A DNA stretch of 64,000 bases, from positions 4,032,001-4,096,000 of the forward strand of contig CBDETK010000013.1 in assembly GCA_965242865.1 (NCBI GenBank), in the 5' to 3' direction. The translations under genes and the position numbers were made by a program. Positions 14,089 through 37,251 of this stretch are shown in pieces. The notes beneath the pieces were generated by a model, which had not been told where the DNA came from, made no database searches, and worked only from the letters and a program-made list of their open reading frames with translations. Positions within the stretch are counted from its first letter, which is position 1. Every line of letters begins with the position of its first letter. Source of the DNA: Candidatus Latescibacterota bacterium (GTDB taxonomy: Bacteria > Latescibacterota > UBA2968 > UBA8231).

Positions 14089-14090
14089 GA

Positions 14091-17299: not shown

Positions 17300-17308
17300 T
17301 AAAAGGGG

Positions 17309-21638: not shown

Positions 21639-21654
21639 GAAAGGCACTACAATT

Positions 21655-24600
21655 ATGCCTAAGTTCGCGGTGAGGTGGATGGCCCTCGGCCTAATGTTGG
21701 CCAGCGCGGCCCCGGCTTGGACCGAGGTCGATTTTACCGAATTGGCGCGCACGACCCCAGTTGAGCGCGTGCAGCAGACGATGGACACTTTTGCTGGCTT
21801 GGGGTCTAGAGTGGCTGGCTATCGAGGGGCCGACCAAGCGGCCCAAATCGTGCAGGAACGCTTCCGCGCCATCGGCCTCGACGACGTCGCAGTCCACGAA
21901 TACGATGTCTCGATTCCCGTGGATAAGGGTGGGTTTTTGCAAGTCGTCGGCAGCGACCAACGAGTGCCCATCCACGGCCTCTGGCCCAACCTCGTCAAGA
22001 CCTCAACGCTGCCCGAAGGCGGGATGACCCAGCGCCTAATCGACGCCGGCGCCGGCGAGTACGCCGACATGGATGGCCAGCAAGTCGAAGGGGCCGTGGC
22101 CCTGATGGACTTCAATTCGGACGACGCTTGGCTCAATGCCGCGTACCTCGGGGCGCAGGCCATCGTCTTCATCGAGCCGGATTCCACCGTGTACTTGGAG
22201 GGCGAAAAGAAGTTTCTCACCATGCCGCTCGACCTGCCGCGGTTTTGGGTCAATCGCCAAGCCGGTCAGCTCTTGCGCCGCCAGTTGGCCACCGAGGGCG
22301 AGCAAACCCTGCACCTAGAGTACCGCATGGATTGGGAGCGGCGGCCCGCTTGGAACATCCTCGGCTCGATCCCCGGGTACGATCCTCTAATGAAAGAGGA
22401 CGTCATCGTGCTGGAGGCGTACTACGACGCCATGTCGGTCGTGCCGGCCCTCGCCCCGGGGGCCGAGCAGGCCTCCAGCATTACGGCGTTGTTGGAACTG
22501 GCGCGCTATTTCCGCGCCAACCCGCCGGCGCGCACCATCGTCTTTCTCGCCACTTCGGCCCACCACTTGGGCTTGCGCGGGGTCGATGATTTCATTCAGC
22601 GTTACCTACGCAAAGAGGACCCCTTTATCGAACACATGCTGGTCCGGCGGGTCGTCGATGCGGCCCTCGCGCAGGAGATGATCGCCCAAGACGGCATTCA
22701 CTACGCCATCGGCGAGGACAAATTCACCGGCAAGGAAGCCTTGGTGCGGGGCATTGCCGACGGGCGCACCAACTTGGCCGTGCGCGTTGCGGACGCCGCC
22801 CTCGCCGAAGGGCTGCTGGCCGAAGCCGAAGACCCGGCGCGCAGCTCGTGGGGCTTGTGGAAGAAGACCATAGAATGGGTCCGGAGGCTGCTGAGCCGCG
22901 AAGAAGGCTCCCTGCACCTCGCTGGCAAGCAATTCAAAGACCGCCATGAACTGGTCGAGCGGCTCGACGCGGACGACGACTTGCGCTTGGCCCTGTACAA
23001 GCGCTGGGCCGACCCCAAAATCGATTCGCTCGCGGTCAAGCTCTTTATCAGCCTCGACCTTTCGTCGCAGACCGACGAGCTCGGGGTGTGGAATAGCAAT
23101 ACCAGCTTTTACTACAAGCGTTACTTCGCGCCCTTCGGCAAAAACTTTATGGCCTATGCGCGCACGATCAGCCGCGAGCTGGGCTACCAGCAGCGCGATG
23201 TGCTGGTCAACGGCATCAGCCCCGAAGGCGGGATGAGCTGGCAGACCTTTGTCCCCGGCGAAATATCGGTCAACAGCGAATTGGTGTTGGCAACCGGCAC
23301 TCCGGCGTTGGCCTTTGTCACGGTCAACGACGCACGCTTCCTCGTCGATACGCCCCTAGACCGCGCCGAGCGCGTCAACCACGCCAATCTCGCCAAGCAG
23401 ATCCGGGTCTTGGCCGGCATGTTCGAGATGGCCTTTGAAGACCCCGAGCTGTTCCCAGACTTCAAGATGCGCCTGCGCGACAATCTGCGCTCGCTCCGCG
23501 GCCGGACCATGGTCTTTCCGCGCCGCAGCATCATCCCCGACCTGCCGCGGGCCGACGCCGTGGCCGTGGTGCGCAACGGCAAGAAAAAGTCGTATAAAGG
23601 CGTGCGCGGCGAGTACTACGAAGTCGTCGATGACAAGGGGGCCTTTTACGTCAATCGGGTGCGGGTCAACAACGTCCAGATCGAGGGCTACTACATGGAC
23701 CCGATCACCGGCCGCATCACCTACGCCCCGGACCGCGGTGTGCAAGGCGACGAGAGCTACCCCATGAAGGTCGCCATGGACTGGCGCGACAAGCAGTGGA
23801 TGGTCATTCTCTTCCCCTGCGTGCCTTACAACTTTTTCGACATCGTCGATCCGCGCTATCTCACCAAGCTGTCCAACGTGCAGGTCTTCGACGAGACTAA
23901 CAGCGCCCCGGTAGAATACGGTTACACCATTGGCGAAGGCCCCTCGGCCCAAAACGAGCCGGTCGGCGTGCTCTTTGCGCGGCCCGGCTCGCGCATCAAG
24001 ATGGGATTCGGCGCCGGCCTGCTCGGCTTCCGCTCGCTCCTGCTCAACGCCACCAGCGTAACCGACAAGGAAAAAGCCGAGGGCGAGGGCTTTGAGATTC
24101 GCCCCGGCACCTCCTTTGCCCGCACGACCTTCCAAGCTGCCCAAGACATGTGGAACCTCGACGAGTCGCGGATGCGCGAGTTGCGGAGCTTTGCCATTGA
24201 GAACCAGCGCCTCAACGACCTCCACTATCGGGCCGAAACCGAGTTGGACCAAGCGGCCGCGGCCGGCGCCGAGCAGCGCTGGGGCGATTTCGTGCGCCAC
24301 ACGCGCGCGGCCTTCGGCCTAGAATCGCGCGCCTATCCAGACGTCAAATCCACCCAAAACGACGTCATTCAGGGCATCATTTTCTTCATGGCCCTGGTCA
24401 TTCCCTGCGCCTTTTTCACCGAGCGGCTCCTGTTTACGGCCGCCACCATCCGCAATCAGATCATCGGGTTTGTCGGGGTTTTTGTCGCGATCTGGAGTGT
24501 GTTGTGGATGGTGCATCCGGCCTTTCAGTTGTCCAATCCCTTCGTCATTCTGCTCGCTTTTGTCATCATCGCGCTGGCCGTGCTCGTGATGTCGATCATC

Positions 24601-26481
24601 TCCGGCCGCTTCAACGAGCAGATGAAAAAGCTCCGCACCGAGGTGGCCGTGATCCACGACACGGACGTCAGCCGCTCTTCGGCCTCGCTAACGGCTTTCC
24701 AGCTCGGGATTTCCAACATGAAGCGGCGCAAGACGCGCACGGTCCTCACCTTTACCACGCTCTTGCTGCTGACCTTTACCGTCCTCTCCTTCACCTCCAT
24801 CCGCACGGGCCTGCGGTTCAATCAAATCAGCCGCGACAACGAGGGCCTCTACGAGGGCATCCTAATCCGCAGCAAGGCGTGGAACCCAATGGAGGATTCA
24901 GTCCTCGAATACGCGCGCAGCAATTTCGGCGATCGGGCCGCGGTCGCGCCGCGCAGTTGGTACAGCAACAAGGCCAAGGCGCACATCAAAATAAAAGCCG
25001 GGGAAAAAGCCCATAACGCGCTCGGCGTCTTGGGGTTGACCCCGGAGGAAACCGAGGTCACCGGGCTAGACCAAGCCCTCGTGGCCGGGCGGTGGTTCGC
25101 GCCGGGCGAGGACAAGGTCTGCATCCTGCCCATCGACATGGTCAAGGAGGCCCATCTCGACATTGATCTCGCCGAGGTCGGCCAAGCGCAGGTCCGCATC
25201 TTCGGCGACTTGTTCACGGTCGTTGGCGTCCTCGACTCCAAGCGGATGAAGGACCTCAAAGACCTCGACGACGAAATCCTGACCCCGGCCGACTTTGCCG
25301 TCACCGGCGGCCAAGCCGTGCAGGAAATCGCCGAGGAAGAAAAGCGCGAGAAGCAGGGCTTGGAGGACGCCAAGGTCGTCATCAAGCCCTTTGTCCATCT
25401 GGAGCCGGCCAACATCCTCATCGTGCCCTACCACACGCTGCGCAACGTCGGCAGCGGCAACCCCTTGCAGTCTGTGGCCGTGCGCTTTCCGGCCGGCAGC
25501 GATGTGCGCGGCGAGGTCGAGGAATTTCTCTCGCGCCTCGCGGTGACCCTGTTTGCTGGCATCAAGGAGCCCGGCGACGAATACATCAAGGTGGCGATTT
25601 ACTCATCGCTGGGGCTGACCTCCTTTTCCGGCATGAGCAACTTGTTCATTCCCATGCTGATTGCCTCGCTCATTGTGCTCAACACCATGATGGGCAGCGT
25701 GTACGAGCGCTTCCGCGAAATTGGCATCTACTCTTCGGTGGGCCTCGCCCCCGGCCATATCTCTTGGCTGTTTATCGCCGAGAGTTGCGTCTATTCGGTA
25801 TTGGGCGTCGTCGCCGGGTATCTCAGCGGCCAAGTGATCGCCAAGGTGCTCATCGAGTTCGACCTGCTGGGGGGCTTCACCCTCAACTACTCTTCCGTGG
25901 CCGCGGTGCTCTCCTGTATGCTGGTGATGGCCGTGGTCATGCTCTCGACGATTTACCCGGCGCGCAAGGCTTCGCAAATGGCCGTGCCGGACGTGACCCG
26001 CAAGTGGAAGCTGCCGCCGCCCGACGGCGACCAGTGGGATTTTGAGTTCCCCTTTACGGTGAGCGGCCACGAGGTTTTGGGCTTGAGCGTATTCCTCATC
26101 GGCTACTTTGATTCCTACAGCGAAGAGTCCATCGGCACCTTCTACACCGACGGCGCCCGACTACGCCGCGAAGAGACGCCCAACGGCGAAGGGTATCTCA
26201 TCGACATGAACATCTGGCTGGCTCCCTTCGACTTGGGCGTCAGCCAACACGTCACCGTGCGGGCCCTGCCCGAGGACGAGCACAACATCTACTCCGTCGG
26301 TCTGCAAATCAAGCGACTCAGCGGCGAGGACGCGTCGTGGCGTCGGGTCAACCAGCGCTTTATGAACGTCATCCGCAAACAGTTCCTTATATGGCGCACG
26401 GTGGATACCGAGGCCAAGGAAGGCTACCGCCAACAGGGCGCGGAAATTCTGCAAGGGCTGCGCAGCGAAGTGTCGGCGTAG
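21655..26481 (+). CDS. Giant membrane protein: M28-peptidase-like ectodomain fused to a MacB/FtsX-type permease
   Basis: Signal peptide; SRVAGY.GA, NILG, AYYD..PGAE..LLELAR..RTIVFL (M28 fold); ISNMKRRKTRTVLT TM1 and SVYERFREIGI FtsX signature. Confidence 0.8.
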   Translation: MPKFAVRWMALGLMLASAAPAWTEVDFTELARTTPVERVQQTMDTFAGLGSRVAGYRGADQAAQIVQERFRAIGLDDVAVHEYDVSIPVDKGGFLQVVGSDQRVPIHGLWPNLVKTSTLPEGGMTQRLIDAGAGEYADMDGQQVEGAVALMDFNSDDAWLNAAYLGAQAIVFIEPDSTVYLEGEKKFLTMPLDLPRFWVNRQAGQLLRRQLATEGEQTLHLEYRMDWERRPAWNILGSIPGYDPLMKEDVIVLEAYYDAMSVVPALAPGAEQASSITALLELARYFRANPPARTIVFLATSAHHLGLRGVDDFIQRYLRKEDPFIEHMLVRRVVDAALAQEMIAQDGIHYAIGEDKFTGKEALVRGIADGRTNLAVRVADAALAEGLLAEAEDPARSSWGLWKKTIEWVRRLLSREEGSLHLAGKQFKDRHELVERLDADDDLRLALYKRWADPKIDSLAVKLFISLDLSSQTDELGVWNSNTSFYYKRYFAPFGKNFMAYARTISRELGYQQRDVLVNGISPEGGMSWQTFVPGEISVNSELVLATGTPALAFVTVNDARFLVDTPLDRAERVNHANLAKQIRVLAGMFEMAFEDPELFPDFKMRLRDNLRSLRGRTMVFPRRSIIPDLPRADAVAVVRNGKKKSYKGVRGEYYEVVDDKGAFYVNRVRVNNVQIEGYYMDPITGRITYAPDRGVQGDESYPMKVAMDWRDKQWMVILFPCVPYNFFDIVDPRYLTKLSNVQVFDETNSAPVEYGYTIGEGPSAQNEPVGVLFARPGSRIKMGFGAGLLGFRSLLLNATSVTDKEKAEGEGFEIRPGTSFARTTFQAAQDMWNLDESRMRELRSFAIENQRLNDLHYRAETELDQAAAAGAEQRWGDFVRHTRAAFGLESRAYPDVKSTQNDVIQGIIFFMALVIPCAFFTERLLFTAATIRNQIIGFVGVFVAIWSVLWMVHPAFQLSNPFVILLAFVIIALAVLVMSIISGRFNEQMKKLRTEVAVIHDTDVSRSSASLTAFQLGISNMKRRKTRTVLTFTTLLLLTFTVLSFTSIRTGLRFNQISRDNEGLYEGILIRSKAWNPMEDSVLEYARSNFGDRAAVAPRSWYSNKAKAHIKIKAGEKAHNALGVLGLTPEETEVTGLDQALVAGRWFAPGEDKVCILPIDMVKEAHLDIDLAEVGQAQVRIFGDLFTVVGVLDSKRMKDLKDLDDEILTPADFAVTGGQAVQEIAEEEKREKQGLEDAKVVIKPFVHLEPANILIVPYHTLRNVGSGNPLQSVAVRFPAGSDVRGEVEEFLSRLAVTLFAGIKEPGDEYIKVAIYSSLGLTSFSGMSNLFIPMLIASLIVLNTMMGSVYERFREIGIYSSVGLAPGHISWLFIAESCVYSVLGVVAGYLSGQVIAKVLIEFDLLGGFTLNYSSVAAVLSCMLVMAVVMLSTIYPARKASQMAVPDVTRKWKLPPPDGDQWDFEFPFTVSGHEVLGLSVFLIGYFDSYSEESIGTFYTDGARLRREETPNGEGYLIDMNIWLAPFDLGVSQHVTVRALPEDEHNIYSVGLQIKRLSGEDASWRRVNQRFMNVIRKQFLIWRTVDTEAKEGYRQQGAEILQGLRSEVSA

Positions 26482-26737
26482 GTGCAGCCCAAGTAGATAG
26501 CCTAGCTGCCCGGCGGTAGCGGGTTTCTCTACAGCTCCATTTCCAGATCAACGGCTGCATGACAGCATCGGCCGACGCTCGTCGTGTGGTTCGTCCAGTT
26601 CCTTCTTTCTATGCTCAAATAGTGTGCTGAGGGGGATGCCGTCGGAGGCGCGTCCCGAACAATCGAGCGATACGCCGGGGTCTGGGGACATCCCCCGAAC
26701 TTGTGGGGCGCGTGGCAGACGCGGTGGAGGACACAAA

Positions 26738-27568
26738 ATGTGGACGTATCGAGTGATCATCATTGCGTTGTTCGCCCTATTGCGGATGGGGGATGCGTAT
26801 GCGGAAACGGAGCCAAAAGAAATCACGATTCACATCCGTGGAGAGTACAACAAGGCGGTGATTCCGGCTCTGTTGGCGGCGGCTGACGCGAAGACGACGA
26901 GGACCGGGATCGCCGAGTTGGATTCTCTTGCAGCCACTTATGGCCTGATGGGGATATATCACAAGTCTGGCTTTTATGGGTATCAGTTTCGGCTGACGTT
27001 TCCGCCGGGTGCGGATGGGGCCGCCATTGCCGGAGCTTATAGGAACGTATCCTATATACAGGCGGTCGTCGGAGAGGCCGAGAAACTCCCGGTTCTTTTA
27101 GATCATCGTACAGCGAATGGTCTCCGTTCTTTTACCATGGAAAACCCGAGATTCCGGTTGCTCGCAAAGGTGGGTGCTGGAACGGCTTCGGGAATCATTG
27201 TTACAGCCATGGCCGCTAGTGCTATAGCAAACGCGGATAACTTTATGGGAGGTCATATTTTAGCGGGATCAGTCTTCGGCTGTAGTGTCGGATTCCCGTT
27301 GGGTGTGAGCATGGTTGATCATTATGATTCTTTACTCATTACCCTACTCGGTGGTGTCATACCGCTATCGGCCGGCGCTTACTTAGTAGGACACGAGATC
27401 GAAAGTATTAGGGTACTAGGGGCAACGGCTATATTTGTCGGCCCTATTATTGGTTCGCTCTATGCTTCGGAGAAATGGCGCCAGCTTCCTCAAGCCCGCC
27501 GCGTCTCCTTCGCGTTATCCCCTACCCTCAACGGCGGCCTTTCTGCCGTAGCCCAACTGCGCTTTTGA
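26738..27568 (+). CDS. Mosaic array protein A: signal + S8-prodomain-like module + Gly-rich hydrophobic core + conserved C-terminal hairpin
   Basis: GGAGG RBS; ETEPKEITI module shared with 29205; ends RVSFALSPTLNGGLSAVAQLRF. Confidence 0.75.
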   Translation: MWTYRVIIIALFALLRMGDAYAETEPKEITIHIRGEYNKAVIPALLAAADAKTTRTGIAELDSLAATYGLMGIYHKSGFYGYQFRLTFPPGADGAAIAGAYRNVSYIQAVVGEAEKLPVLLDHRTANGLRSFTMENPRFRLLAKVGAGTASGIIVTAMAASAIANADNFMGGHILAGSVFGCSVGFPLGVSMVDHYDSLLITLLGGVIPLSAGAYLVGHEIESIRVLGATAIFVGPIIGSLYASEKWRQLPQARRVSFALSPTLNGGLSAVAQLRF

Positions 27569-27589
27569 CCTTGCAACAAGAGAAAGGCT
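27475..27589 (+). repeat. 115-bp direct repeat, copy 1 (3' end of gene plus intergenic/RBS)
   Basis: Matches 28164-28278 except one base by my alignment; diverged third copy at ~30690-30810. Confidence 0.92.
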
Positions 27590-27594
27590 CCCCG

Positions 27595-28257
27595 ATGCCC
27601 ATTGCCATTGTGCTCACTGTGCTCACATTGCTCATCGGCATGGTCTCGCCCCTTTTCGCCAACTCCCCAGCGCAGTCTCCCTACTGGACGGGTCGGCTCG
27701 AACAGGACGCGACGTGGCGCGACACGGTGTCTGTCGGCGGCGATGTGACGATTGCAGCCGCGGCGACGGTGGCTAGCGACAGTGTGCAGATGGATACTGG
27801 CCGCGCCATTGGTGGATCCAGAGAGAATCCAGATGGTCTTGGGCCGAGATTGGGGAGAACTGCCCGAAAGTTGATTTTCGGTACTCTTGGAGGCATTGCT
27901 TTAGGGATTGTGGTGGGTGCCAGTGCCAGTGGAGGCTACAGCGGTGACGCTATCGGTGGATATAACAGTGCATTGGCAGGCTTCTTTTTGGGATATGGAG
28001 CCGGAACGGTGCTTAGCGTGTACTTAAGCGATCGACAGGCTCGTTTTAGCGGGGTACTGGCTGGCGGTACGGTGGGGATATGGGTAGGTGCTAAGACGAT
28101 AAGTAAGACCGAAGTGCCCATGTTAATCTGTCCTGTTGCCTTTGCGACAATTGCGTCTGAACTATGGCGCCAGCTTCCTCAAGCCCGCCGCGTCTCCTTC
28201 GCGTTATCCCCTACCCTCAACGGCGGCCTTTCCGCCGTAGCCCAACTGCGCTTTTGA
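27595..28257 (+). CDS. Mosaic array protein B: signal + truncated beta-helix module + Gly-rich core + conserved C-terminal hairpin
   Basis: YWTGRLEQDATWRDTVSVGGDVTIAA shared with 30027 and 31470; C-terminus identical to protein A. Confidence 0.75.
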   Translation: MPIAIVLTVLTLLIGMVSPLFANSPAQSPYWTGRLEQDATWRDTVSVGGDVTIAAAATVASDSVQMDTGRAIGGSRENPDGLGPRLGRTARKLIFGTLGGIALGIVVGASASGGYSGDAIGGYNSALAGFFLGYGAGTVLSVYLSDRQARFSGVLAGGTVGIWVGAKTISKTEVPMLICPVAFATIASELWRQLPQARRVSFALSPTLNGGLSAVAQLRF

Positions 28258-28278
28258 CCTTGCAACAAGAGAAAGGCT
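28164..28278 (+). repeat. 115-bp direct repeat, copy 2
   Basis: See 27475-27589. Confidence 0.92.
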
Positions 28279-28299
28279 TGAAACAGAAAGGACTGTGAG

Positions 28300-28983
28300 A
28301 TGCGCTTTATTTTGCTGGTCTTATGGCTACTGCTCGCCCTTTGGGAGCCAGTGGCGGCTCGGACGATTCGGGTCTCAGAAAAGGAATCAGAACACGGGCA
28401 CTTGGCCTTGTTTTGGGCTCTGATAGAGGCGGCTCCGCACGATACGTTGCTCGTCGCTGCCGGGGATTATGAGGGGGGTCGCATCGATAAACCCCTGACG
28501 CTCATTGGGGCCGGAGCCGATAGCACTAGAGTGGTAAGTTGCGGCGGCGGGGGATTCGGGATAGGAGCCGAAGGGGTAACCATTGAAGGATTTTATATAC
28601 AGAGCCACTTTGATAAATGTCGTGGGGCGAGAGCTATTGTGTGTAATAATTGTTCTGCGACACTCAAGCACAACATTCTCGAAGGGTGTTACTCGGCGAT
28701 TACCACCCTTGATAATGCTCGACTAACCGTCAACTACAACCAACTAATAGGCAACTTCGCCTTTGAGATTTTCCTCTCTGACCCTCCGAGCACTATTGAC
28801 GCTCGCTTCAACTGGTGGGGGACGACGGTTGAACAGGAGATACAGGCCAAGATAGCCGCGACGATGGACCAGGTGGTGTTGGTGTATCGGCCTTGGCTGC
28901 GAGGTCCCGAGGAAATCTTCCGTGATTTCCCTACCTTTATATCCCTGCTCAGTTGGGGTCAATTGAAACAGAAAGGACGATGA
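28300..28983 (+). CDS. Secreted right-handed beta-helix (pectin-lyase-like) protein
   Basis: Signal peptide; DTLLVAAGDY..IDKPLTLIGAG..VTIEGFYI..IDARFNWWG; C-terminal SWGQLK tail. Confidence 0.75.
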   Translation: MRFILLVLWLLLALWEPVAARTIRVSEKESEHGHLALFWALIEAAPHDTLLVAAGDYEGGRIDKPLTLIGAGADSTRVVSCGGGGFGIGAEGVTIEGFYIQSHFDKCRGARAIVCNNCSATLKHNILEGCYSAITTLDNARLTVNYNQLIGNFAFEIFLSDPPSTIDARFNWWGTTVEQEIQAKIAATMDQVVLVYRPWLRGPEEIFRDFPTFISLLSWGQLKQKGR

Positions 28984-28984
28984 C

Positions 28985-29122
28985 ATGCGCTTGGTCCTCC
29001 TGCTCTTTCTGTTGGGAGTCGGCTTTGCGGCCAGCGACGCCACCGAGGCGGGCTACGTTACGGGTCTAATTGTCGTCTTTTATATGTTCTCTGGGGTCTT
29101 TCTGGGTGTTCCAGGAATGTAG
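28985..29122 (+). pseudogene. Cassette stub: signal peptide + YVTG, then unrelated sequence (45 aa)
   Basis: MRLVLLLFLLGVGFAASDATEAGYVTGLIVVF...; CTACGTTACGGGTC is identical to the start of the module in 31470. Confidence 0.5.
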
Positions 29123-29204
29123 CTTATCCTGAGCTCGGCACCAAGGTTTGTCGGCTGTCGCCATGCTGTGCTTTTAATCCCTCAATAACGGGAGGATACG
29201 CTTT

Positions 29205-29969
29205 ATGCCGCTTATGATCGTTGCTACCCTGTTCGCCATACTCATGGTAGAGGGGGCAGAAGCAGAGACGGAGCCAAAAGAAATCACGATCCGCATCCGT
29301 GGCGAGCACAAAGCGGTGATTTCGGGTCTGTTGGCGGCTGTTGACGAGGGGACGACGGTTACGGGGATCGCCGAGTTGGATTCTCTTGCAGCCACTTATG
29401 GTCTGATAGAGTATGGTACGGGTCGATCCTCTGTCTTTTATGGGTATCGGTTTCGGCTGACGTTTCCGCCGGGTGCGGATGGGGCCGCCATTGCCGGAGA
29501 TTATGGGAACGTACCCTATATACAATTGGTTCGTCAACGCGCCAATTTGGGTAAGCGAGTTACGGGTAAGTTACTCGTTGGCACTCTTACTGGTAGCGTT
29601 GTCCTTGTGGGGGTGGGTGTTCCTCTGAGAACATTGACTTCTGATAGCGTCGCTACCATCGCTTGGGTTGGCTATCCGATTGGAGTGGGGCTCGGGACCA
29701 GTTTATTGGATAGACACGATTATTATCGATCCTTGGTATTTTCAATAGGTGGCAGCTTCTTAGGGGCTGGGATTGGCCTTGCACTAATCCCCATAGATCC
29801 ATGGAGGAATCCCATCAGTGCCGTTGGGCTCATTATGATCATGCAGTCTATCACGGCCACGTTGGTGTCCGAGTTGTTTCGCAAGCCCCCAGAGTCTGAC
29901 CGCTTCTCGGTAGGTCTGGTGCCAGACATCGGAGGGAACTGGTCGGCCGTAGCTACCCTGCGGTTTTGA
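29205..29969 (+). CDS. Mosaic array protein E: signal + S8-prodomain-like module + Gly-rich core + C-terminal hairpin
   Basis: GGAGG RBS; N-module DNA 29265-29524 similar to 26804-27060; ends RFSVGLVPDIGGNWSAVATLRF. Confidence 0.75.
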   Translation: MPLMIVATLFAILMVEGAEAETEPKEITIRIRGEHKAVISGLLAAVDEGTTVTGIAELDSLAATYGLIEYGTGRSSVFYGYRFRLTFPPGADGAAIAGDYGNVPYIQLVRQRANLGKRVTGKLLVGTLTGSVVLVGVGVPLRTLTSDSVATIAWVGYPIGVGLGTSLLDRHDYYRSLVFSIGGSFLGAGIGLALIPIDPWRNPISAVGLIMIMQSITATLVSELFRKPPESDRFSVGLVPDIGGNWSAVATLRF

Positions 29970-30026
29970 ACCGAGCCGCAAGATAGGCTCTAAACACCTA
30001 ACTGTTGGAAAGTCAACGTCTCACGG

Positions 30027-30788
30027 ATGGAGAGTACAAAGATAAAATATAGCCGACACACATGGCACTCTATCCAATATCGGCGGTATCGAGTGCTGTG
30101 GTTTGTCTTGATCCTGCTGGGAATTGGCTCTGCGGCCGAGGCCAGTGCTCCGGTTCCCTCGCGGTCCTACTGGACGGGTCGGATCAAACAGGCCACCACG
30201 TGGCGCGACACGGTGTATGTCGGCGGCGACGCGACCAAGCGGGGTGGGCGCGTCATGGTGGACTCGACTGGTGATTCAGGAAGCGGCGCGATGTCGGATA
30301 GTCTTGCGGAGAGTAAGAGTAATATGAGTACTGGTAAGCGAGTTGCTCTCAAGTTAATCGCTGGTACTCTTGGGGGAGTGGTAGGATTCGCGATGGTCAT
30401 CTCCAGCTTACCTTGCTTTCCCGACGACTATCCAGACGGTTACGATCCCATCTTTTGTAAATCAGCAGAAGCAGCTCTTCGATACGGCTATCCGGTCGGA
30501 ATTGCTATTGGTGTCAGTTTGGTTGGTCCACGCGACCGCCCTATCACATCCTTCATCAGGCCCCTAGTCCTATCCCTAGGCGGCAGTGCAGTAGGATTAA
30601 TCGGAGGTATTTGGTTGACAAATGTTGATAGCGAGGTGTTCTGGCCATCCATCCCTGTCTTTCCTATCGTCGGTGCGACGCTGGCGTCTGAACTATGGTG
30701 CCAGCCTCCTCAAGACCGCCGCTTCTTTTTCTTTTTAGCTCCCACCCTCAACGGCGGCCTCTCCGCCGTTACCACGTTACGCTTTTGA
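30027..30788 (+). CDS. Mosaic array protein F: signal + internally deleted beta-helix module + Gly-rich core + C-terminal hairpin
   Basis: YWTGRIKQATTWRDTVYVGGD joined directly to KRGG; ends LAPTLNGGLSAVTTLRF; start uncertain. Confidence 0.7.
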   Translation: MESTKIKYSRHTWHSIQYRRYRVLWFVLILLGIGSAAEASAPVPSRSYWTGRIKQATTWRDTVYVGGDATKRGGRVMVDSTGDSGSGAMSDSLAESKSNMSTGKRVALKLIAGTLGGVVGFAMVISSLPCFPDDYPDGYDPIFCKSAEAALRYGYPVGIAIGVSLVGPRDRPITSFIRPLVLSLGGSAVGLIGGIWLTNVDSEVFWPSIPVFPIVGATLASELWCQPPQDRRFFFFLAPTLNGGLSAVTTLRF

Positions 30789-30814
30789 CCCTTCAATGAG
30801 AGAAAGACTCCCCT

Positions 30815-31450
30815 ATGCCCATTTTGATCGCGGTAATCGCGTCGTCTTTGGCTTTCGTTCTGATGATTTTTTCGCTGAGTTCCACAAGTAATTCATCGTT
30901 GTCGCGGTCGAAGCAGCCATGTCTTTGGCCGCGTTGTGTCGTACTCAGTCTTCTTATGACGGTAGCTGCTCTTTGGGCTGGCTGTGGAAATGAAAAAGTC
31001 ACCGCACTAAGAGACGGGGCGATTGTTGTAATGGGGGCGATCAGAGATAAGGAGACCTTGGAACCGCTGAACAAGACTCTTGTGGGAGTCGTGTACTCGG
31101 GAATACCAGATAGTGTACTCATCGACTCATCGGCATTTTTGATTGTAACGCCTGAGCAGAAAGAAACCGGACGTCATCCACAAACCGCCTTGTGGACAAT
31201 TGAACAACCTCTGGTCCTCAACTATGAAGTTATGGAGTTTTTCACGGAAACCAGCGAGAACGGACTTTTTGAAATATATGAGTTTCCAAGTACCTGCGGC
31301 TCACACTATGACTGCGCTATAGAGCGTATCAGCAGATTGGTTGCTTGGAGGTCCGGCTACAGGTTATGGAAATACGACGTCCGGCGTGATACGGTCTCGA
31401 ATAATACCCCTCTTAATGTCTCTATTTACATGGAAAAAATCGAGAACTAA
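30815..31450 (+). CDS. Lower-GC exported hypothetical protein, possible lipoprotein
   Basis: Start context (GAGAAAG.CTCCCC.ATGCCCATT) matches gene B; internal LWAGC lipobox-like motif. Confidence 0.55.
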   Translation: MPILIAVIASSLAFVLMIFSLSSTSNSSLSRSKQPCLWPRCVVLSLLMTVAALWAGCGNEKVTALRDGAIVVMGAIRDKETLEPLNKTLVGVVYSGIPDSVLIDSSAFLIVTPEQKETGRHPQTALWTIEQPLVLNYEVMEFFTETSENGLFEIYEFPSTCGSHYDCAIERISRLVAWRSGYRLWKYDVRRDTVSNNTPLNVSIYMEKIEN

Positions 31451-31469
31451 CGCGATGGAAGTACACACC

Positions 31470-32534
31470 ATGAAGAGATCATTCGTTTCCACGGCCTTGT
31501 TGCTCCTCGGCATGGCCTCGCCTCTTTTCGCCAGTTCCCCAGCGCAGCAACCCTACGTTACGGGTCGGCTCGAACAGGCCACCACGTGGCGCGACACGGT
31601 GTATGTCGGCGGCGACGTGACGATTGCAGCGGGAGCGACGCTGACGCTGGACCCCAACACGCAGGTTTTCTTTCTGCCCTACCGCGATGAGACCCGAGGC
31701 GGCTTGGACACCACCCGTGCGGAACTGATCGTCAAGGGGCGACTGCATGCCCACGCCGGCGGCATCGTCTTTCGTTCCGCGGATGCGGCTTCGTTGGGAG
31801 CCGATTGGTATGGCCTCGTCGTCGAGCGGGGCGGGCGAGCCGATGTATCCTACGCTGCGATTCGCGATGGGCTGCGTTGCGTGTATGCCAAGCGGGGTGG
31901 GTTCGTCAGGATGGACGCTGTCGCCTTTGCCAACTGCGGAAAGCCGACCGCGCCAGCGGGTAGGGACAGTACGCTGACCGCAGGGGGCGTTGAGTTGGTG
32001 AACTCGTTGTCCATAGAGGCCGAGCCGGTAGATGCGTACTCCCTAAACGATAGGGCGATTACGAGGATTCCGACAAAGATAGGCGTAGGTGCGCTGACGA
32101 CGTTAGCGACAACAGTCATACTAGCCGAAACAATATTTCAACCAAAAGATAACTTTACAGAAGAAAATGCTCTGTTTTCAAAGGAAGACGAAGCCTACCT
32201 TATATCCCTCTCTTTCGGACTACTTGTCGGATACCCTCTTGGCGTGTACTTGGCCGATCCGGTGGAGAGCTCCTGCTGGATGACATTCGTGGGGGGGTAT
32301 GGTCTGGCTCTGGGAGGGTGGGCGACCGGAAGCGATCTGATCGCTGGGGTGGTTGTTTCTGGGGCTCCAATAATGGCGTCGGAGCTATCCCGGCTACTGC
32401 CCAAGCCGTTTCGCAATCCCAACCCATTCAAATGGCTATTCGGAACGTTTGGTCAGCCTAGCCCCCGCGTATCTTTCGGGTTGGCGCCGCAGCCCCAAAG
32501 GGGCCTGTCGGCCAGAGCCACGCTCCGCTTCTAA
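31470..32534 (+). CDS. Mosaic array protein H: signal + full beta-helix module + Gly-rich core + C-terminal hairpin
   Basis: TTWRDTVYVGGDVTIAAGATLTL..ELIVKGRL..WYGL; ends RVSFGLAPQPQRGLSARATLRF. Confidence 0.75.
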   Translation: MKRSFVSTALLLLGMASPLFASSPAQQPYVTGRLEQATTWRDTVYVGGDVTIAAGATLTLDPNTQVFFLPYRDETRGGLDTTRAELIVKGRLHAHAGGIVFRSADAASLGADWYGLVVERGGRADVSYAAIRDGLRCVYAKRGGFVRMDAVAFANCGKPTAPAGRDSTLTAGGVELVNSLSIEAEPVDAYSLNDRAITRIPTKIGVGALTTLATTVILAETIFQPKDNFTEENALFSKEDEAYLISLSFGLLVGYPLGVYLADPVESSCWMTFVGGYGLALGGWATGSDLIAGVVVSGAPIMASELSRLLPKPFRNPNPFKWLFGTFGQPSPRVSFGLAPQPQRGLSARATLRF

Positions 32535-32539
32535 TTCCC

Positions 32540-32600
32540 ATGAGGCTAATGACCGCTGCCACGACCCTGTTTGCCGTAAGCACGGTAGAGGAGGCGTCGC
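32540..32600 (+). pseudogene. Cassette stub homologous to the signal peptide of array gene E
   Basis: MRLMTAATTLFAVSTVEEA vs MPLMIVATLFAILMVEGA; DNA ACCCTGTT.GCC.TA..CA.GGTAGAGG shared. Confidence 0.45.
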
Positions 32601-32868
32601 TGACCGCACCGCCCGCGCCGACGCTGGTATGCCGCTGGCGTCTGAGTTATATTATACCGCTTGAGGAGGCCACGGCGGCCAAATCACCTTGCTGCGCTGG
32701 CGAAAGCCAGCCACAGAACGCGCCTAATACAGGGGTATTATATAATGTATAGTCAATCGTCGGCGAGCAGATCGCAATGCACCCGACCCCCTTGCTGCGC
32801 TGAAGGATAAGGGGCCGCGAGGTGGCGGTATGAAGACGATCCAAGCAAAAAGCGGAGGTCCATAGCGA

Positions 32869-35283
32869 ATGCTCGGAAGAAAAAATAGGAACCCGAACCA
32901 AGAGATCGAAGAGTATCGGGATTTAATGCAGGTCCCGGACCGCTTTGAGAACGGCTTTACGATCAAGGCCGTCCTCGGCGTGTTCTTCGTCGCCTTTATC
33001 ATGGTGCCGGGCAATATGTACCTGAGCCTGATGATCGGCGGCTCTTTGGGGGCGGCGGCCGAGTGGGTGACGATCATCCTCTTCGCCGAAATCACCAAAC
33101 GCTCCTTTTCCTCCCTTCGTCGCCAAGAAGTCTATGTGCTGTTCTACGTGGCCGCCTCCCTGATCGCGGCTGAGACCGGTGCCTTTGAGGGCTTGCTCTA
33201 CAACCAGTACTTGGTGCAATCGCCGGCCGCCAAGCAGTTCGGCATCACCAAGCTGATTCCCACCTGGGTAGCGCCGCAGCCCGACTCCCTCGCGATCATC
33301 GAGCGCACCTTCCTGCACTCGGATTGGGCGATGCCGATCGTGCTCCTCGTCTTGGGGATGATCATCTCGCGCGTCAACTGGTTCACCATGTCGTACGCGC
33401 TCTTCCGGCTCAGCTCCGACTACGAGCGCCTGCCCTTCCCCTTCGCGCCCGTCAACGCGCAAGGCGCGACAGCACTGGCCGAGACGACCCAAGGACTTGA
33501 GACGTGGCGCTGGCGAGTATTTTCGGCCGGGGCGATGATCGGCTTGGTCTTTGGCACGATTTACGTGGCCCTGCCGGCCATTACCGGCGCGCTGCTGACC
33601 GAGCCGATCCAACTCATCCCCATCCCCTTTGTTGACTTCACCCAAGTCACCGGCAACTTCATCCCAGCCACCCCGCTCGGATTTACCGCGCACTTGGGGC
33701 CGATCTTTACCGGGTTGGTGGTGCCGTTCTGGGGCGTGGTCGGCACCTTTATCGGCGTGGTCGTCGCCTCAATTGCCAATCCGCTGCTTTACACTTGGAC
33801 GCCGCCGTGGCGCGAGGAGCCGTACCTGAACTTGTGGCAGCAAGGCATGGGCACGGTCGAGACCTTCTTCGTCAACAACGTGGATTTCTGGATGAGCTTT
33901 GGCATTGGCACCACCGTCGCCATCGCCATCATTGGCATCTATCAGGTCGTTCAGAGCATCCGCGGGGCTAGGGCCAACGCCAGCGACGACAGCCCCCGCA
34001 GCTTTGCCGCTCCCGCCGGCCGCGGCGATTTCCCGATATGGTTGGCACTGGCCCTCTACGCCTTGGCCACGGCTGGGCTGATCGGCATCGCCGCTTGGCT
34101 GCTGCCGGGCATTGCCCAATTTATATGGTTCTTCCTCTTCTTTGGTTTCGTCTTCACGCCCTTTCAGTCCTTTGTCAACGCCCGCCTAGTGGGGATGGTG
34201 GGGCAGACAGTGGACATCCCCTTCGTGCGCGAGGCCACGATCATCCTGTCGGGGTATCGCGGCGTTGACATCTGGTTCATTCCGTTTCCTTTGGGCAACT
34301 ACGGCGCCCAAACCATGAAGTTCCGCGAAATCGAGCTGACCGGCACCCAGTTTACCAGCATCATCCGCGCCGAGATTTTCATGGTGCCCATCGTGCTGTT
34401 CACCAGCTTTCTCTACGGCTCCTACATCTGGAAACTGGCACCGATCCCGTCGGCCTCCTACCCCTATGCCCAGCTAATCTGGCGGCTGCGCGCCTACCAG
34501 CAATGCCTCTTTATCACCGGGACCATGCGCAGCGAACTGGCCATCGATAAGGACCGGGCCGGCTGGACGCCGGCCAATCTAATCGAGAACGAGTGGTGGT
34601 ACTGGCGCGTGCGGCTGGTGGATCAAGAGTGGCTCGACTCCAGCGGCAAGCGCGGCCAAGTCGGCCCGTGGATGCCGACCCAAGTGTTCTACTCGTACTT
34701 TGAGCAGGGCGCGCCCGACATTGTCGCCGAGCGCTACCTGCGCGACGCCCGGCAGGCCGACGAGGAAATTGTCGAGGGCCTGCCGGGCATTGCCCCGGTC
34801 GGGCCGGCCATGGACACCATCATTCGCGATCCCCGCCCGACCCTCGAAGTGCAGATCGAGCGCGCCGTGCCGGCCGGCTGGTCCTTTTACTTTGAGGTCG
34901 ATACCGATCCGCTCTTTACCAGCTCTTGGATCCAGCGATCCACGGACGTGCCTTGGCTCTTTAGGGCGCTGAAAACAGAGGTCATCGCCTTTGGGGCTGG
35001 CTTTGGGCTGGTGAGTTTCATTCTGCTGTCCATTCTCGGGCTGCCGATCCTGCTGATCTTTGGCTTTGTGCGCTCGCTGACGTCGCTGCCGCACTTCGTG
35101 GTGACCGAGATCATCGGCGCCTTCTTGGCCCGCTACTACTTCTGGAACAAGTACGGGCGGCAAGAGTGGCGGCAGTTTGCCCCGATTCTGGCGGTGGGCT
35201 TTTCCTGCGGCATGGCCTTGATGGGCATGGCGTCCGTGGGAATCGCCCTGATCCAGAAGTCGGTCTCCGTGCTGATCTTCTAG
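32869..35283 (+). CDS. OPT-superfamily-like peptide transporter with an inserted soluble domain
   Basis: GGAGG RBS; multiple TM helices; AAEWVTIILF, ERLPFPFAPV.A.GATALAE, WKLAPIPSASYP. Confidence 0.72.
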   Translation: MLGRKNRNPNQEIEEYRDLMQVPDRFENGFTIKAVLGVFFVAFIMVPGNMYLSLMIGGSLGAAAEWVTIILFAEITKRSFSSLRRQEVYVLFYVAASLIAAETGAFEGLLYNQYLVQSPAAKQFGITKLIPTWVAPQPDSLAIIERTFLHSDWAMPIVLLVLGMIISRVNWFTMSYALFRLSSDYERLPFPFAPVNAQGATALAETTQGLETWRWRVFSAGAMIGLVFGTIYVALPAITGALLTEPIQLIPIPFVDFTQVTGNFIPATPLGFTAHLGPIFTGLVVPFWGVVGTFIGVVVASIANPLLYTWTPPWREEPYLNLWQQGMGTVETFFVNNVDFWMSFGIGTTVAIAIIGIYQVVQSIRGARANASDDSPRSFAAPAGRGDFPIWLALALYALATAGLIGIAAWLLPGIAQFIWFFLFFGFVFTPFQSFVNARLVGMVGQTVDIPFVREATIILSGYRGVDIWFIPFPLGNYGAQTMKFREIELTGTQFTSIIRAEIFMVPIVLFTSFLYGSYIWKLAPIPSASYPYAQLIWRLRAYQQCLFITGTMRSELAIDKDRAGWTPANLIENEWWYWRVRLVDQEWLDSSGKRGQVGPWMPTQVFYSYFEQGAPDIVAERYLRDARQADEEIVEGLPGIAPVGPAMDTIIRDPRPTLEVQIERAVPAGWSFYFEVDTDPLFTSSWIQRSTDVPWLFRALKTEVIAFGAGFGLVSFILLSILGLPILLIFGFVRSLTSLPHFVVTEIIGAFLARYYFWNKYGRQEWRQFAPILAVGFSCGMALMGMASVGIALIQKSVSVLIF

Positions 35284-35284
35284 C

Positions 35285-36277
35285 ATGGGCGATTGGGTGG
35301 ATTTCGCGTGGCAGGGGCTGCGGTTGTCCGTGCCGGGCGACTGGAATCTCGGCCGGGTTGACGGCGACTTTGAAAAGGGCTACGCCCGGCTCGACGACGC
35401 CGAGATCGTGCGCGCCGAGATCGAATGGCGGCGTCTCAGAAGCCGCGGCGAGGCCCTGCGCCTGACCGAGCTGGTCGACCGCTACTTGGCCAACCTGCAA
35501 AAGAAGGCCCAAAAGGCCGATGCCCCCTTTGAAGTCCAGCGCCGCGCCCGGTTCCTCAAAAACAAGCAATTCCTCCAAGGCCGCGAGTACGAGGTCTTTA
35601 TATGGGAGGCCGATTTCCGCGCGTACAACCTCGCGCTGGCCTTGGAGTCTGGGCGGGTTGTGCTCCTGCGCGTGCTGGCCCGGCTCGATGAGTTTTTGCC
35701 CGACCAAGCCGAGGCCGTGTTCAGCTCGCTCGCCGACCAAGAAGCCGAGGCCGCGCACCTGTGGAGCGTGTACGGCTTGCGGTTTTTCGCCCCCAGCGAC
35801 CTCAAGCTGCAAAGCCATTCCCTCAAGTCGGGGCACCTCCAGTTGGAGTTTACCCGCGGCAAACAGACGCTGCGGGTCCATCGGTTGAGCATGGCCCGAA
35901 TCATGCTCAAAGGCGCGGCCATCCAAGACTGGTATCCGGTCTTTTTTAAGAAGCCGTTGCGCGACTTGGTGGTGGATGTCGTGCCAGAAGCCGTGCAAGG
36001 CTGCGAGGGCATTCGCGTCGAGGGGCGGCCGCGCAGCCGCTGGCGTCAACTGCTGCGTCCCCTGCCCTTTATGAACCCGAGGCCGCGCCTGTATCTTCGG
36101 GGGCGCGTCTGGCGCGATGCCAGCCTCGACAAAATCGCCATCGTCGAGCACCTCTACCGCAAGAAAGACCTACAAGACGATCTCGTCGCCAAGGTAGTAG
36201 ATGGGCATTTTATCGAAAAACAAGGGACCCAAGCTGAGCCGGGCCGCCATGCTGGCGTCGCGGCCAACGCGCAATGA
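35285..36277 (+). CDS. Hypothetical protein of the transporter cluster
   Basis: Starts 2 bp after the OPT-like stop; two similar segments (FAWQGLRLSVP / WSVYGLRFFAP). Confidence 0.65.
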   Translation: MGDWVDFAWQGLRLSVPGDWNLGRVDGDFEKGYARLDDAEIVRAEIEWRRLRSRGEALRLTELVDRYLANLQKKAQKADAPFEVQRRARFLKNKQFLQGREYEVFIWEADFRAYNLALALESGRVVLLRVLARLDEFLPDQAEAVFSSLADQEAEAAHLWSVYGLRFFAPSDLKLQSHSLKSGHLQLEFTRGKQTLRVHRLSMARIMLKGAAIQDWYPVFFKKPLRDLVVDVVPEAVQGCEGIRVEGRPRSRWRQLLRPLPFMNPRPRLYLRGRVWRDASLDKIAIVEHLYRKKDLQDDLVAKVVDGHFIEKQGTQAEPGRHAGVAANAQ

Positions 36278-37237: not shown

Positions 37238-37251
37238 CGCGAGCGCGGCAG

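Follow-up and report, generated by a model that had tools for sequence, protein, structure and literature searches.

Envelope multigene families such as msp2/p44 of Anaplasma and opa and pil of Neisseria are varied by gene conversion. Known polymorphic toxins have their conserved part at the N-terminus, the opposite of the proteins described here. To our knowledge, Latescibacterota have no cultured, genetically tractable members, and we know of no account of how they build and vary their envelopes. A recent preprint describes SlyB and YfgH as helical outer-membrane glycine-zipper proteins that form oligomeric rings (10.64898/2025.12.22.696046). In the present study, we analyzed a tandem gene array in a Candidatus Latescibacterota genome; the window is the whole 64,000-nt stretch of DNA that was analyzed. 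The best reading of the array, to which we give a probability of roughly 0.55, is a recombination-shuffled family of exported, membrane-anchored display proteins.

The first-pass annotation of this DNA had described five genes that share an orientation and a design (A, B, E, F, and H; Table 1), and all five were recovered as plus-strand ORFs at the starts that it gave. Each ORF was intact, with its own start, an upstream ribosome-binding stretch, and the signal peptide claimed for it, recognizable as a hydrophobic N-terminal segment followed by a small-x-small site. The intergenic gaps in the array were 19–57 nt. Gene C gave below-cutoff matches to Beta_helix (E 3.8e-4) and a NosD family (E 8e-9), and its counterpart occupied the matching place in L001, a related Candidatus Latescibacterota genome and the one used for the synteny comparison. 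Gene G had no family match in Pfam, NCBIfam, or PHROGs. Five further C-like genes and one family copy, P0294, appeared to lie at loci outside the window.

Table 1. Features of the array and its flanks (positions in the window).
Feature	Coordinates	Strand	Description	Basis
DUF6785 protein	19668-21638		Weakly similar to the 804-aa right-flank membrane protein	
M28 peptidase / MacB-FtsX fusion, 1620 aa	21619..26481	+	Left flank; 94% nt identity with L001	Pfam
Gene A, 276 aa	26738..27568	+	Signal peptide, EITI head, anchor core 27155-27466, tail 27467-27565	ORF and C-domain profile
Junction repeat, copy 1	27475..27589	+	Tail, stop codon, ribosome-binding stretch; abrupt borders	
Gene B, 220 aa	27595..28257	+	Signal peptide, shortened TWRDTV head, anchor core 27856-28155, tail 28156-28254	ORF and AlphaFold2
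Junction repeat, copy 2	28164-28278	+	As copy 1	
Gene C, 227 aa	28300..28983	+	Exported, beta-helix-like; outside the anchor family; array resident	
Stub	28985..29122	+	Twice-degraded remnant of a TWRDTV-type gene	Aligns with P0053, P0004, and the beginning of a 449-aa gene of L001
Gene E, 254 aa	29205..29969	+	Signal peptide, EITI head, anchor core 29556-29867, divergent tail 29868-29966	
Gene F, 253 aa	30027..30788	+	Signal peptide, truncated TWRDTV head, anchor core 30339-30686, tail 30687-30785	
Gene G, 211 aa	30815..31450	+	Small, lipoprotein-like N-terminus; unrelated to the anchor family; array resident	
Gene H, 354 aa	31470..32534	+	Signal peptide, full TWRDTV head, anchor core 32064-32378, long tail 32379-32531	
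Tail-start relic	32625..32660	+	36 nt, repeat D7; 97% identical to L001 18299-18335	
Polytopic membrane protein, 804 aa	32869..35283	+	Right flank, no Pfam match; 95% nt identity with L001	

The lower GC that had been noted in the cores was evident at third codon positions, where GC3 was 0.43–0.51 in the cores compared with 0.56–0.73 in the heads and 0.61–0.71 in the tails. Across the array, GC3 was 0.51–0.66 versus 0.76–0.83 in the flanking genes, and the non-family genes C and G were also low (0.51 in gene G). The difference from the flanks suggests insertion into an unrelated operon. This weighs against an improbable alternative, in which the family members are clients of the flanking machinery and the DUF6785/DUF6784 protein, the M28/MacB-FtsX fusion, and the 804-aa protein recognize the tail and extract, process, or sort its carriers. 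In both genomes, the array is bordered by the same three large membrane proteins, conservation within the family proteins is highest in the tail, and permeases of the MacB/LolCE type draw their substrates out of the inner membrane or the periplasm. However, this adjacency was seen in two closely related genomes only, P0294 and the five C-like genes appear to lie elsewhere, and Pfam scans found no ATPase partner beside the permease.

The first-pass annotation had called the cores unique. We found instead that all five matched one profile over its full length (E 1e-39 to 1e-55; 1e-54 for gene A) and aligned end to end, as diverged, fast-evolving paralogous copies of one domain. That annotation had itself named end-to-end alignable cores, as in ordinary diverged paralogues, as evidence against its reading, and in part this is what was observed. 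The shared C-terminal domain is about 140 aa long, and a profile search returned 452 cluster representatives (50% identity clusters) at E<=1e-3, with 307 at E<=1e-10. Their source names were only "hypothetical protein", and no significant match to the domain was found in Pfam, NCBIfam, PADLOC, PHROGs, PDB, or BFVD (viral folds). Of 219 proteins, 216 had no more than 3 aa beyond the end of the domain and 213 had Phe as the last residue, and an N-terminal hydrophobic run was present in 183 of 201 members. The tail claimed for all five array proteins was likewise recovered, with 24 invariant columns lying mostly within the last 35 residues. From sequence evidence, this is a real, unannotated family of exported proteins with a previously undescribed, putative membrane-anchor tail.

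The Gly-rich, hydrophobic, multi-helix character reported for the cores agreed with AlphaFold2 models of two different targets, both of which gave four charge-free glycine-zipper helices followed by a beta-hairpin. The anchor helices had a pLDDT of about 85–95 in both models; in gene B, they spanned residues 83-112, 119-145, 151-168, and 178-190, with the hairpin at 201-206/212-217. These two strands were the only ones predicted (pLDDT 64–70). In the profile of 208 sequences, K, R, D, and E were absent within the helices, Gly occupied positions 44, 48, 52, and 56 of a G-x3-G-x3-G-x3-G zipper in 65–99% of cases, and R1, K5, S112, E113, and F144 were invariant. An Arg-rich linker joined the four helices to the hairpin, in which hydrophobic residues alternated at positions 136, 138, 140, 142, and 144. 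The conserved charges formed three groups, in which R-x3-K precedes helix 1, D-P-x-D links helices 2 and 3, and S-E-x-x-R follows helix 4, and entropy was 3.3 bits in the acidic loops versus 1.2 bits in the hairpin. Mapped onto the predicted fold, the conserved charged residues were all shown to sit at the end of the helices where the two chain termini are, and the two loops at the opposite end were acidic and hypervariable.

Inner-membrane placement of such a bundle behind an exported head would break the positive-inside rule. The modelled charge pattern thus argues against a simple inner-membrane model, without showing an outer-membrane one. No NCBIfam or Pfam model of a sorting signal (PEP-CTERM, LPXTG, T9SS CTD, and others) matched the five proteins. 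One tentative and rather doubtful proposal is that the anchor is a new envelope anchor or sorting module, an outer-membrane four-helix bundle whose hairpin mimics the barrel beta-signal. The charged cap and the termini would then be periplasmic, and the acidic hypervariable loops would face the surface under diversifying selection. Such an anchor would have a porin-like topology, with termini in and variable loops out, built from helices.

Both reused heads of the earlier description were recovered as DNA repeats. The EITI head common to A and E corresponded to repeats D4–D6 (87%, 95%, and 73% identity), and the TWRDTV head common to B, F, and H to D3, three copies of 70 nt that were 89–91% identical; repeat D2 (144 nt, 86% identity) additionally joined B and H. 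Both heads were modelled with pLDDT <50. An in-frame deletion has shortened the head of gene B, whose core is preceded by a full-length head in a relative, P0002; gene F has an ortholog-like relative, P0010. Three independent in-frame head deletions were counted. Heads other than these two occur in relatives. The N-regions of family members were 1–617 aa long, and the only Pfam matches among 80 longer members were LRR, Big_9, and cadherin, in one member each.

Independent assortment of these modules, also claimed earlier, was observed in the window, in L001, and among relatives. Beside unalignable cores, the 3' ends of A and B were identical at 114 of 115 nt, with the match continuing for 21 nt of non-coding sequence after the stop codon, and the same junction was kept after other copies. 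Genes that carry both heads in tandem occur in L001, whose array has been rebuilt in gene order and junctions between flanks that are 94% identical to those of the window. One core cluster of 46 proteins carried 25 beta-helix heads, 15 EITI heads, 2 with both, and 4 with another or none, together with two tail types (26 and 20), and P0294 combined an A-like head with an H-like core and tail. Synonymous divergence differed between adjacent modules of the same gene pairs: for L1-L4, it was 25/77 in the EITI head versus 7/85 in the core (p=1.3e-4); for A-E, 14/69 versus 59/80 (p=5e-11); and for L2-L3, 30/85 in the EITI head versus 0/26 in the tail (p=9e-5; Fisher tests uncorrected for multiple comparisons). 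The incongruence of head and core trees was borderline and non-significant (AU p = 0.050, 0.10, 0.14, and 0.17). As judged from these modules, heads, cores, and tails are shown to have different histories. Independent assortment, unfixed gene order, and discordant synonymous divergence together bore out the earlier view of a recombination-diversified exported envelope family. Its members may be variable surface antigens, one of the roles suggested in the first-pass annotation.

The first-pass annotation had noted the absence of integrase, invertase, and reverse transcriptase genes; Pfam scans of 43 window ORFs likewise gave no match to these or to a transposase, and no dedicated diversifier was found in the window. 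A diversity-generating retroelement would require a reverse transcriptase with a template/variable repeat pair, and the repeats found reflect whole-module paralogy. Against an invertase or shufflon, there was no recombinase gene and just three weak inverted pairs (24–28 nt, 70–83% complementarity). Two stubs had been taken for recombination leftovers. That at 28985-29122 is a real remnant: it joins the first 29 residues of a truncated relative of 135 aa to the last 16. That relative aligns with the start of a full-length family member, and the 5' junction of the stub repeats that of gene C (repeat D8). The ORF at 32540 is probably no gene. Frameshifted relatives (P0017 and P0021) were also observed. 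Together with the stubs and the head deletions, they show that copies have decayed as well as diversified.

In uncorrected pairwise counts on these recombining genes, pN/pS was 0.12–0.6 in the tails, 0.44–0.9 in the EITI head, and 0.8–2.35 in the cores. By these counts, the tail is clearly under purifying selection. In the cores, 11 of 12 pairs gave 0.8–1.2 and the pair L1-L4 gave 2.35 (p=0.036, likewise uncorrected). A ratio near 1 also fits plain relaxation, and on a neutral birth-and-death account, which we regard as rather unlikely, the genes are weakly constrained, lineage-specific paralogues changed by unequal crossing-over and deletion, with variation of no adaptive value. The core ratios, the island-wide low GC3, the signs of decay listed above, and the absence of dedicated machinery from the window are all consistent with it. 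Against it stand the constrained tail, the domain residues invariant across 208 sequences, the five window copies that all remain intact ORFs with their own signal peptides, the one close pair at 2.35, and a family of hundreds of diverged clusters.

The first-pass annotation had also offered toxin and immunity readings, and these found no support. No partner gene lay beside any copy, no toxin, immunity, or defence family matched in Pfam, NCBIfam, PADLOC, or PHROGs, and tblastn against phage and plasmid collections gave no match. By these searches, the family is not a known toxin or defence system. Polymorphic membrane-active toxins, with cores that form pores in competitors, heads that serve delivery or receptor binding, and variation that evades immunity, are decidedly improbable. 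Glycine zippers are common in pore-forming effectors, one T7SS effector reportedly among them; the array proteins also have a hypervariable central region and are predicted from their signal peptides to be exported. However, the short intergenic gaps leave no room for immunity genes, and export without immunity into the producer's own envelope would be self-harming. Heads were lost repeatedly while the anchors stayed, the conserved part is C-terminal, and the domain had no PDB or viral fold match. It is very improbable that the array serves immunity or exclusion, each multi-helix membrane copy blocking a different pore-former or phage. Four predicted membrane-type helices, variable loops, and many diverged copies in a row would suit that role. 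On the other hand, we know of no immunity proteins built from a signal peptide and a sizeable exported head such as the LRR, cadherin-like, and Ig-like ones of relatives, the same database searches gave no match, and no cognate toxin genes occurred in the window.

For the preferred reading of shuffled display proteins, we propose the following model. The region would be a recombination-prone chromosomal island carrying tandem paralogues of a family that occurs in Latescibacterota-type genomes. Each protein would comprise a Sec-type signal peptide, an optional exchangeable head (predicted to be small and beta-helix-like for TWRDTV and alpha/beta for EITI), and the C-terminal anchor of four charge-free helices, Arg-rich linker, and hairpin with the invariant final Phe. 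The helices would sit in an envelope membrane and tether the head there; the outer membrane is favoured, where the terminal hairpin would act as the last-strand signal does in outer-membrane proteins. Ordinary homologous recombination between tandem copies, together with gene conversion, would generate new variants. Crossovers would fall in the heads and in the conserved junction of tail, stop codon, ribosome-binding site, and next signal-peptide start, and in-frame deletions would remove heads. The cores may be too diverged to recombine, taking up replacement changes at no less than the synonymous rate and drifting to lower GC3.

The locus defines a sizeable family without annotation or a solved or matched fold, in which diverse heads, adhesion-type repeats among them, are borne by one conserved C-terminal module. 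It also offers a clean natural example of modules shuffled without a dedicated enzyme, by what would be plain homologous recombination at a junction of coding and non-coding sequence. If the anchor is indeed an outer-membrane helical one with a barrel-type terminal signal, it would represent a new attachment route to a Gram-negative-type envelope and a handle for finding the Latescibacterota surface proteome.

The array resembles several known systems in part. Like CDI/Rhs polymorphic toxins, it is a tandem array with modules exchanged at conserved junctions and leftover stubs; unlike them, it has its conserved part at the C-terminus and no immunity genes or toxin domains. The glycine-zipper outer-membrane lipoproteins SlyB, YfgH, OsmB, and YiaD are likewise exported and have hydrophobic GxxxG helices, the membrane location of the array proteins being predicted. 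However, A, B, E, F, and H lack a lipobox Cys at +1, with signal peptides of the signal peptidase I type, and their domain has four helices rather than two, plus the terminal beta-hairpin. The Pfam glycine-zipper models gave no match at E<=1 on whole proteins, the best being Gly-zipper_YMGG at E = 1.5 in 1 of 11 isolated domains. Autotransporters and T9SS cargo are likewise built from a signal peptide, an N-terminal passenger that varies, and a C-terminal module that is conserved and has an aromatic last residue, and in the array family, too, one C-terminal module serves many heads; that module is, however, predicted to consist of helices and only two strands, unlike a beta-barrel or beta-sandwich. 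With outer-membrane beta-barrels, the family shares a terminal aromatic residue on an alternating hydrophobic strand, but AlphaFold2 gave no barrel of at least eight strands. As in Anaplasma msp2/p44 and Neisseria opa/pil, conserved ends enclose a variable middle and the copies have mosaic histories, without need of a dedicated recombinase. In contrast to these gene-conversion families, which use a single expression site and silent partial cassettes, the array holds five complete copies and two short relics, and its variable part consists largely of predicted membrane helices and two short loops.

The ORF analysis revealed eight tightly packed ORFs on the + strand at 26.7-32.6 kb, and the array was identified as a family of exported proteins that recombination has shuffled and that have in common a new, unannotated C-terminal domain, predicted to anchor them in a membrane. 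Genes A, B, E, F and H all began with a hydrophobic signal-peptide-like segment ending in a small-x-small site and closed with a Gly-rich hydrophobic stretch (the core) followed by a conserved tail that terminated in Phe. The sharing of modules was confirmed by DNA repeats: D4-D6 linked the modules of A and E (73-95% identity), D2 and D3 linked those of B, F and H (86-91% identity), and D1 was common to A, B and F at their 3' ends. Between A and B, this end (27475-27589 and 28164-28278) was identical at 114 of 115 bases, with abrupt borders, and the match extended 21 nt beyond the stop codon. These results indicated that the first-pass annotation had described the five-gene design accurately, including its 115-bp figure for the shared 3' end.

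Genes of the array in the window and selected genes of the related locus L001
Locus	Feature	Coordinates	Strand	Description
Window	Gene A	26738-27568	+	Family design, EITI head
Window	Gene B	27595-28257	+	Family design, TWRDTV head, not full length
Window	Gene C	28300-28983	+	Unrelated small exported protein
Window	Stub	28985-29122	+	45 codons
Window	Gene E	29205-29969	+	Family design, EITI head
Window	Gene F	30027-30788	+	Family design, TWRDTV head, not full length
Window	Gene G	30815-31450	+	Unrelated small exported protein
Window	Gene H	31470-32534	+	Family design, TWRDTV head, the only full-length one of B, F and H
L001	449-aa gene	13761-15110		Both heads in tandem
L001	180-aa gene	15276-15818		Unrelated, absent from the window
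L001	306-aa gene	17008-17928		Unrelated, absent from the window

The C-terminal parts of 11 genes, five in the window and six in L001, a related locus on a Candidatus Latescibacterota chromosome, were used to build a domain profile of 144 positions. The profile matched every copy across all 144 positions (E of 1e-39 to 1e-59) and found nothing beyond the family copies when the window was translated in all six frames. The window cores were mutually 18-35% identical and kept their Gly, Asp, Pro, Ser and Glu positions. The cores, previously described as unique, are diverged paralogues of one domain rather than unique inserts. Searching 1.84 billion cluster representatives, we found 452 family proteins with E ≤ 1e-3, of which 307 reached E ≤ 1e-10 and 48 reached E ≤ 1e-30. 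From the 11 window and locus genes and the search matches, we compiled a set of 223 proteins, leaving out one duplicate and one repetitive protein of 3413 aa. The domain was matched at E ≤ 1e-10 in 219 of the 223 proteins; it ended within three residues of the C-terminus in 216 of these 219, and Phe was the last residue in 213. The region ahead of the domain ranged from 1 to 617 aa (median 134), and an N-terminal hydrophobic run was present in 183 of 201 full-domain proteins.

The five window proteins had no significant match in Pfam, NCBIfam, PADLOC or PHROGs. Among 120 of the 247 gene A relatives, two carried source names, both 'hypothetical protein', and they came from MAGs labelled Candidatus Latescibacteria and Gemmatimonadota, one each. 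A Pfam scan of 80 longer members found only LRR, Big_9 and cadherin domains, in one member each, and a 769-aa member gave weak matches to zinc-peptidase motifs (E = 0.02-0.9). The C-terminal domain is therefore a common module placed behind many, mostly undescribed heads. The sequence search of the PDB with the domain profile returned two rows, both at chance level (E = 0.37 and 1.8).

The AlphaFold2 model of gene B, based on a 79-row alignment, contained four predicted helices (residues 83-112, 119-145, 151-168 and 178-190) followed by a hairpin (201-206/212-217). The pLDDT was 81-93 in 9 of 11 10-residue blocks across the helices, 78 and 68 in the blocks containing the loop between helices 3 and 4, and 64-70 in the hairpin. 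A second model, of the 449-aa two-head protein of L001, was based on a different 49-row alignment and reproduced the four helices and the hairpin; both of its heads had pLDDT below 50. The Foldseek search with the gene B model gave no match at E ≤ 0.001, the best hits being at E = 1.3 in the PDB and E = 0.6 in BFVD. In the ESM Atlas, the core lay near unnamed clusters (0.90-0.91), one of which carried Gly-zipper_YMGG on 18% of its members and offers a lead; the EITI head lay near subtilase-propeptide-like clusters (0.77-0.78), a weak lead. A fold prediction of four copies of the anchor domain, run with no controls, scored 0.00 against a mark of 0.42.

The domain anatomy was further described using a profile of 208 sequences. 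Charged residues were essentially absent from the four helices, which were 17-24 profile positions long and, in the gene B model, 13-30 residues long. Helix 2 contained the zipper G-x3-G-x3-G-x3-G, whose Gly residues were present in 65-99% of the sequences. Invariant or nearly invariant elements were the R-x3-K-x3-G start, the D-P-x-D turn that joins helix 2 to helix 3, the S-E-x-x-R motif ending helix 4, an Arg-rich linker and the final Phe. The conserved charges were all located at helix ends, on the same side of the bundle as the two termini of the chain, and the loops on the opposite side (between helices 1 and 2 and helices 3 and 4) were acidic and the most variable, with 3.3 bits compared with 1.2 for the hairpin. 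Four charge-free helices of this length argue for a membrane-embedded bundle rather than a soluble one. If the inner membrane held this bundle, with an exported head in front of it, its positive charges would be periplasmic and its acidic loops cytoplasmic, against the positive-inside rule; we therefore lean towards the outer membrane as its location. Helical glycine-zipper proteins, namely SlyB and YfgH, are known in the outer membrane, according to a preprint (10.64898/2025.12.22.696046).

The locus search, which used narrow tail patterns and a 12-row alignment, returned L001 as its single locus. The array of the window is flanked by an unusual trio of membrane proteins (19668-26481 and 32869-35283), and the same three flank L001: a 656-aa DUF6785+DUF6784 membrane protein, a 1620-aa fusion of M28 peptidase, MacB periplasmic core and FtsX permease, and an 804-aa polytopic protein. 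The membrane part of the fusion also matched PADLOC 'CARF_LolE_TM' (3e-55). The 804-aa protein had no Pfam match and was weakly similar to the DUF6785 protein (E 0.038), and DUF6785 was not mentioned in the literature search. The flanks of the two loci were 94-95% identical in nucleotide sequence. Between them, the L001 array differed from that of the window, with four EITI-type genes, a C-like gene, the 449-aa two-head gene, a 351-aa gene and two unrelated genes; the array DNA could be aligned only patchily, at 68-95% identity, and L001 lacked counterparts to the B, E and F cores. These results indicated that gene order and junctions were not fixed between the two genomes and that the array had been rebuilt between nearly constant flanks.

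The head, core and tail types were tallied in 81 proteins, after 4 of 85 had been dropped as tail-less (two frameshifted, one truncated and one divergent), with cores clustered by single linkage at ≥55% identity. In one 46-member core cluster, the heads were beta-helix in 25, EITI in 15, both in 2 and other or none in 4, and the tails were of one type in 26 and of another in 20. Individual relatives were mosaic as well. P0294, which lies on a contig equal in length to that of gene A, had an A-like signal peptide and head fused to an H-like core and tail; P0001 started with the signal peptide of H, yet was 94% identical to B; and P0002 combined the core of B with a full-length head in front and a different tail. 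Heads had been lost repeatedly with the anchors kept, since the head deletions in B, F and the 351-aa gene of L001, whose first head was removed by an in-frame deletion, each had a different junction. A conserved junction, consisting of the tail, stop codon, ribosome-binding stretch and start of the next gene, was reused even ahead of gene C (repeat D8). Unequal exchange between tandem copies could generate such arrays, and the conserved junction would be its obvious crossover site.

The synonymous divergence was compared between modules within gene pairs. In the L1-L4 pair, 25 of 77 synonymous sites differed in the EITI head versus 7 of 85 in the core (p = 1.3e-4), and in the L2-L3 pair, 30 of 85 differed in the EITI head versus 0 of 26 in the tail (p = 9e-5). 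In the A-E pair, the values were 14 of 69 in the EITI head and 59 of 80 in the core (p = 5e-11), a contrast that is partly an alignment effect because the cores of A and E align poorly; no such effect bears on the contrasts in L1-L4 and L2-L3. These comparisons showed that adjacent modules of one gene pair differ in synonymous divergence. The head and core trees also had different topologies, but AU tests of their incongruence fell short of significance (p = 0.050-0.17), so the formal phylogenetic case is weaker than the case from divergence depth. Pairwise pN/pS was 0.12-0.6 in the tails, 0.44-0.9 in the EITI head and 0.8-2.35 in the cores, the highest value being that of the closest pair, L1-L4 (p = 0.036, uncorrected). 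Replacements in close pairs clustered in helix 1 and the first loop, and helix 3 was nearly unchanged.

The base composition also set the array apart. GC3 was 0.51-0.66 in all array genes (26738-32534), including the non-family genes C and G, and 0.76-0.83 in the flanking genes (19668-26481 and 32869-39420); within the family genes, it was 0.43-0.51 in the cores, 0.56-0.73 in the heads and 0.61-0.71 in the tails. The array is a sharp compositional island without mobile-element genes. Since amino-acid usage has little influence on GC3, the island has had a distinct mutational or recombinational history, its cores most of all. On the reading that we favour, segments that still recombine would retain higher GC3, and cores too diverged to recombine would drift lower; the cores might also be of foreign origin.

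A dedicated diversification machine was also considered. Among the 43 window ORFs scanned, no integrase, invertase, transposase or reverse transcriptase was found, as the first-pass annotation had noted for integrase, invertase and RT genes. The tRNA scan found only two tRNAs in the window (7052 and 9491) and none near the array. The tandem-repeat search gave three trivial rows and no meaningful tandem or inverted repeat, and Rfam had no match over 19000-37000. Promoter and terminator scans found 1 and 7 sites, compared with 4.3 and 6.9 in shuffles. Neither a mobile element nor a switch was indicated by the tRNA, tandem-repeat, promoter or terminator scans. The lack of recombinase or RT genes, repeats, a tRNA and an Rfam element weighs against such a machine. 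A toxin or immunity system, the other role proposed earlier, found nothing in its support: there was no family match, the spaces between copies left no room for immunity genes, heads were lost with anchors kept, and tblastn against phage and plasmid collections did not find the family. Thus the original observation was confirmed and its interpretation proved right in part: of the proposed recombination-diversified envelope family, the shuffling was borne out by the mosaic relatives, the L001 array and the divergence by module, the cores were not unique, and the toxin and immunity readings gained no support.

Gene C encoded an exported, beta-helix-like protein of 227 aa with a multi-copy family of its own, of which 29 relatives were found. 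Five of these, on a contig equal in length to that of gene A, were 68-85% identical, with near-identical N-terminal halves. The last codons of gene C overlapped the junction that is found ahead of family genes. These features suggested further arrays elsewhere in the genome. The array also showed decay. The stub behind gene C, correctly taken for a leftover in the earlier annotation, was a twice-shortened remnant, and a 36-nt tail relic closed the array in both the window and L001. In the relatives P0017 and P0021, the C-terminal end came from the junction of the beta-helix and EITI heads read out of frame, a junction that is intact in the 449-aa gene of L001, indicating that frameshifted copies circulate. 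Gene G was absent from L001, and with the two unrelated L001 genes this difference indicated that the island also gains and loses non-family genes.

In the wider neighbourhood, adhesion-type or eukaryote-like repeat proteins lay close by at 17309-19003 (-), 9681-10385 (-) and 7230-9452 (+), carrying, respectively, LRR with LDL-receptor class B repeats, a domain of the lamin tail type, and FG-GAP/ASPIC domains. A 1714-aa protein at 41254-46398 (-), with DUF4011, AAA_11/AAA_12 helicase, REase_MTES_1575 nuclease and DUF3320 domains, looks like a large defence-type helicase-nuclease. The genes at 54751-56331 (-), 57255-58055 (-) and 58472-59437 (+), with AAA-ATPase_like and PDDEXK_9 domains, a UPF0175 domain and a Polbeta-type nucleotidyltransferase, may be of toxin-antitoxin or defence type.

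The literature search gave no description of the family. What is new here is the anchor domain with its combination of a helical zipper and a terminal hairpin, which is undescribed in the searched libraries and literature. The array as a whole is of an already known kind, in which tandemly arranged, modular envelope proteins of one family vary through gene conversion.
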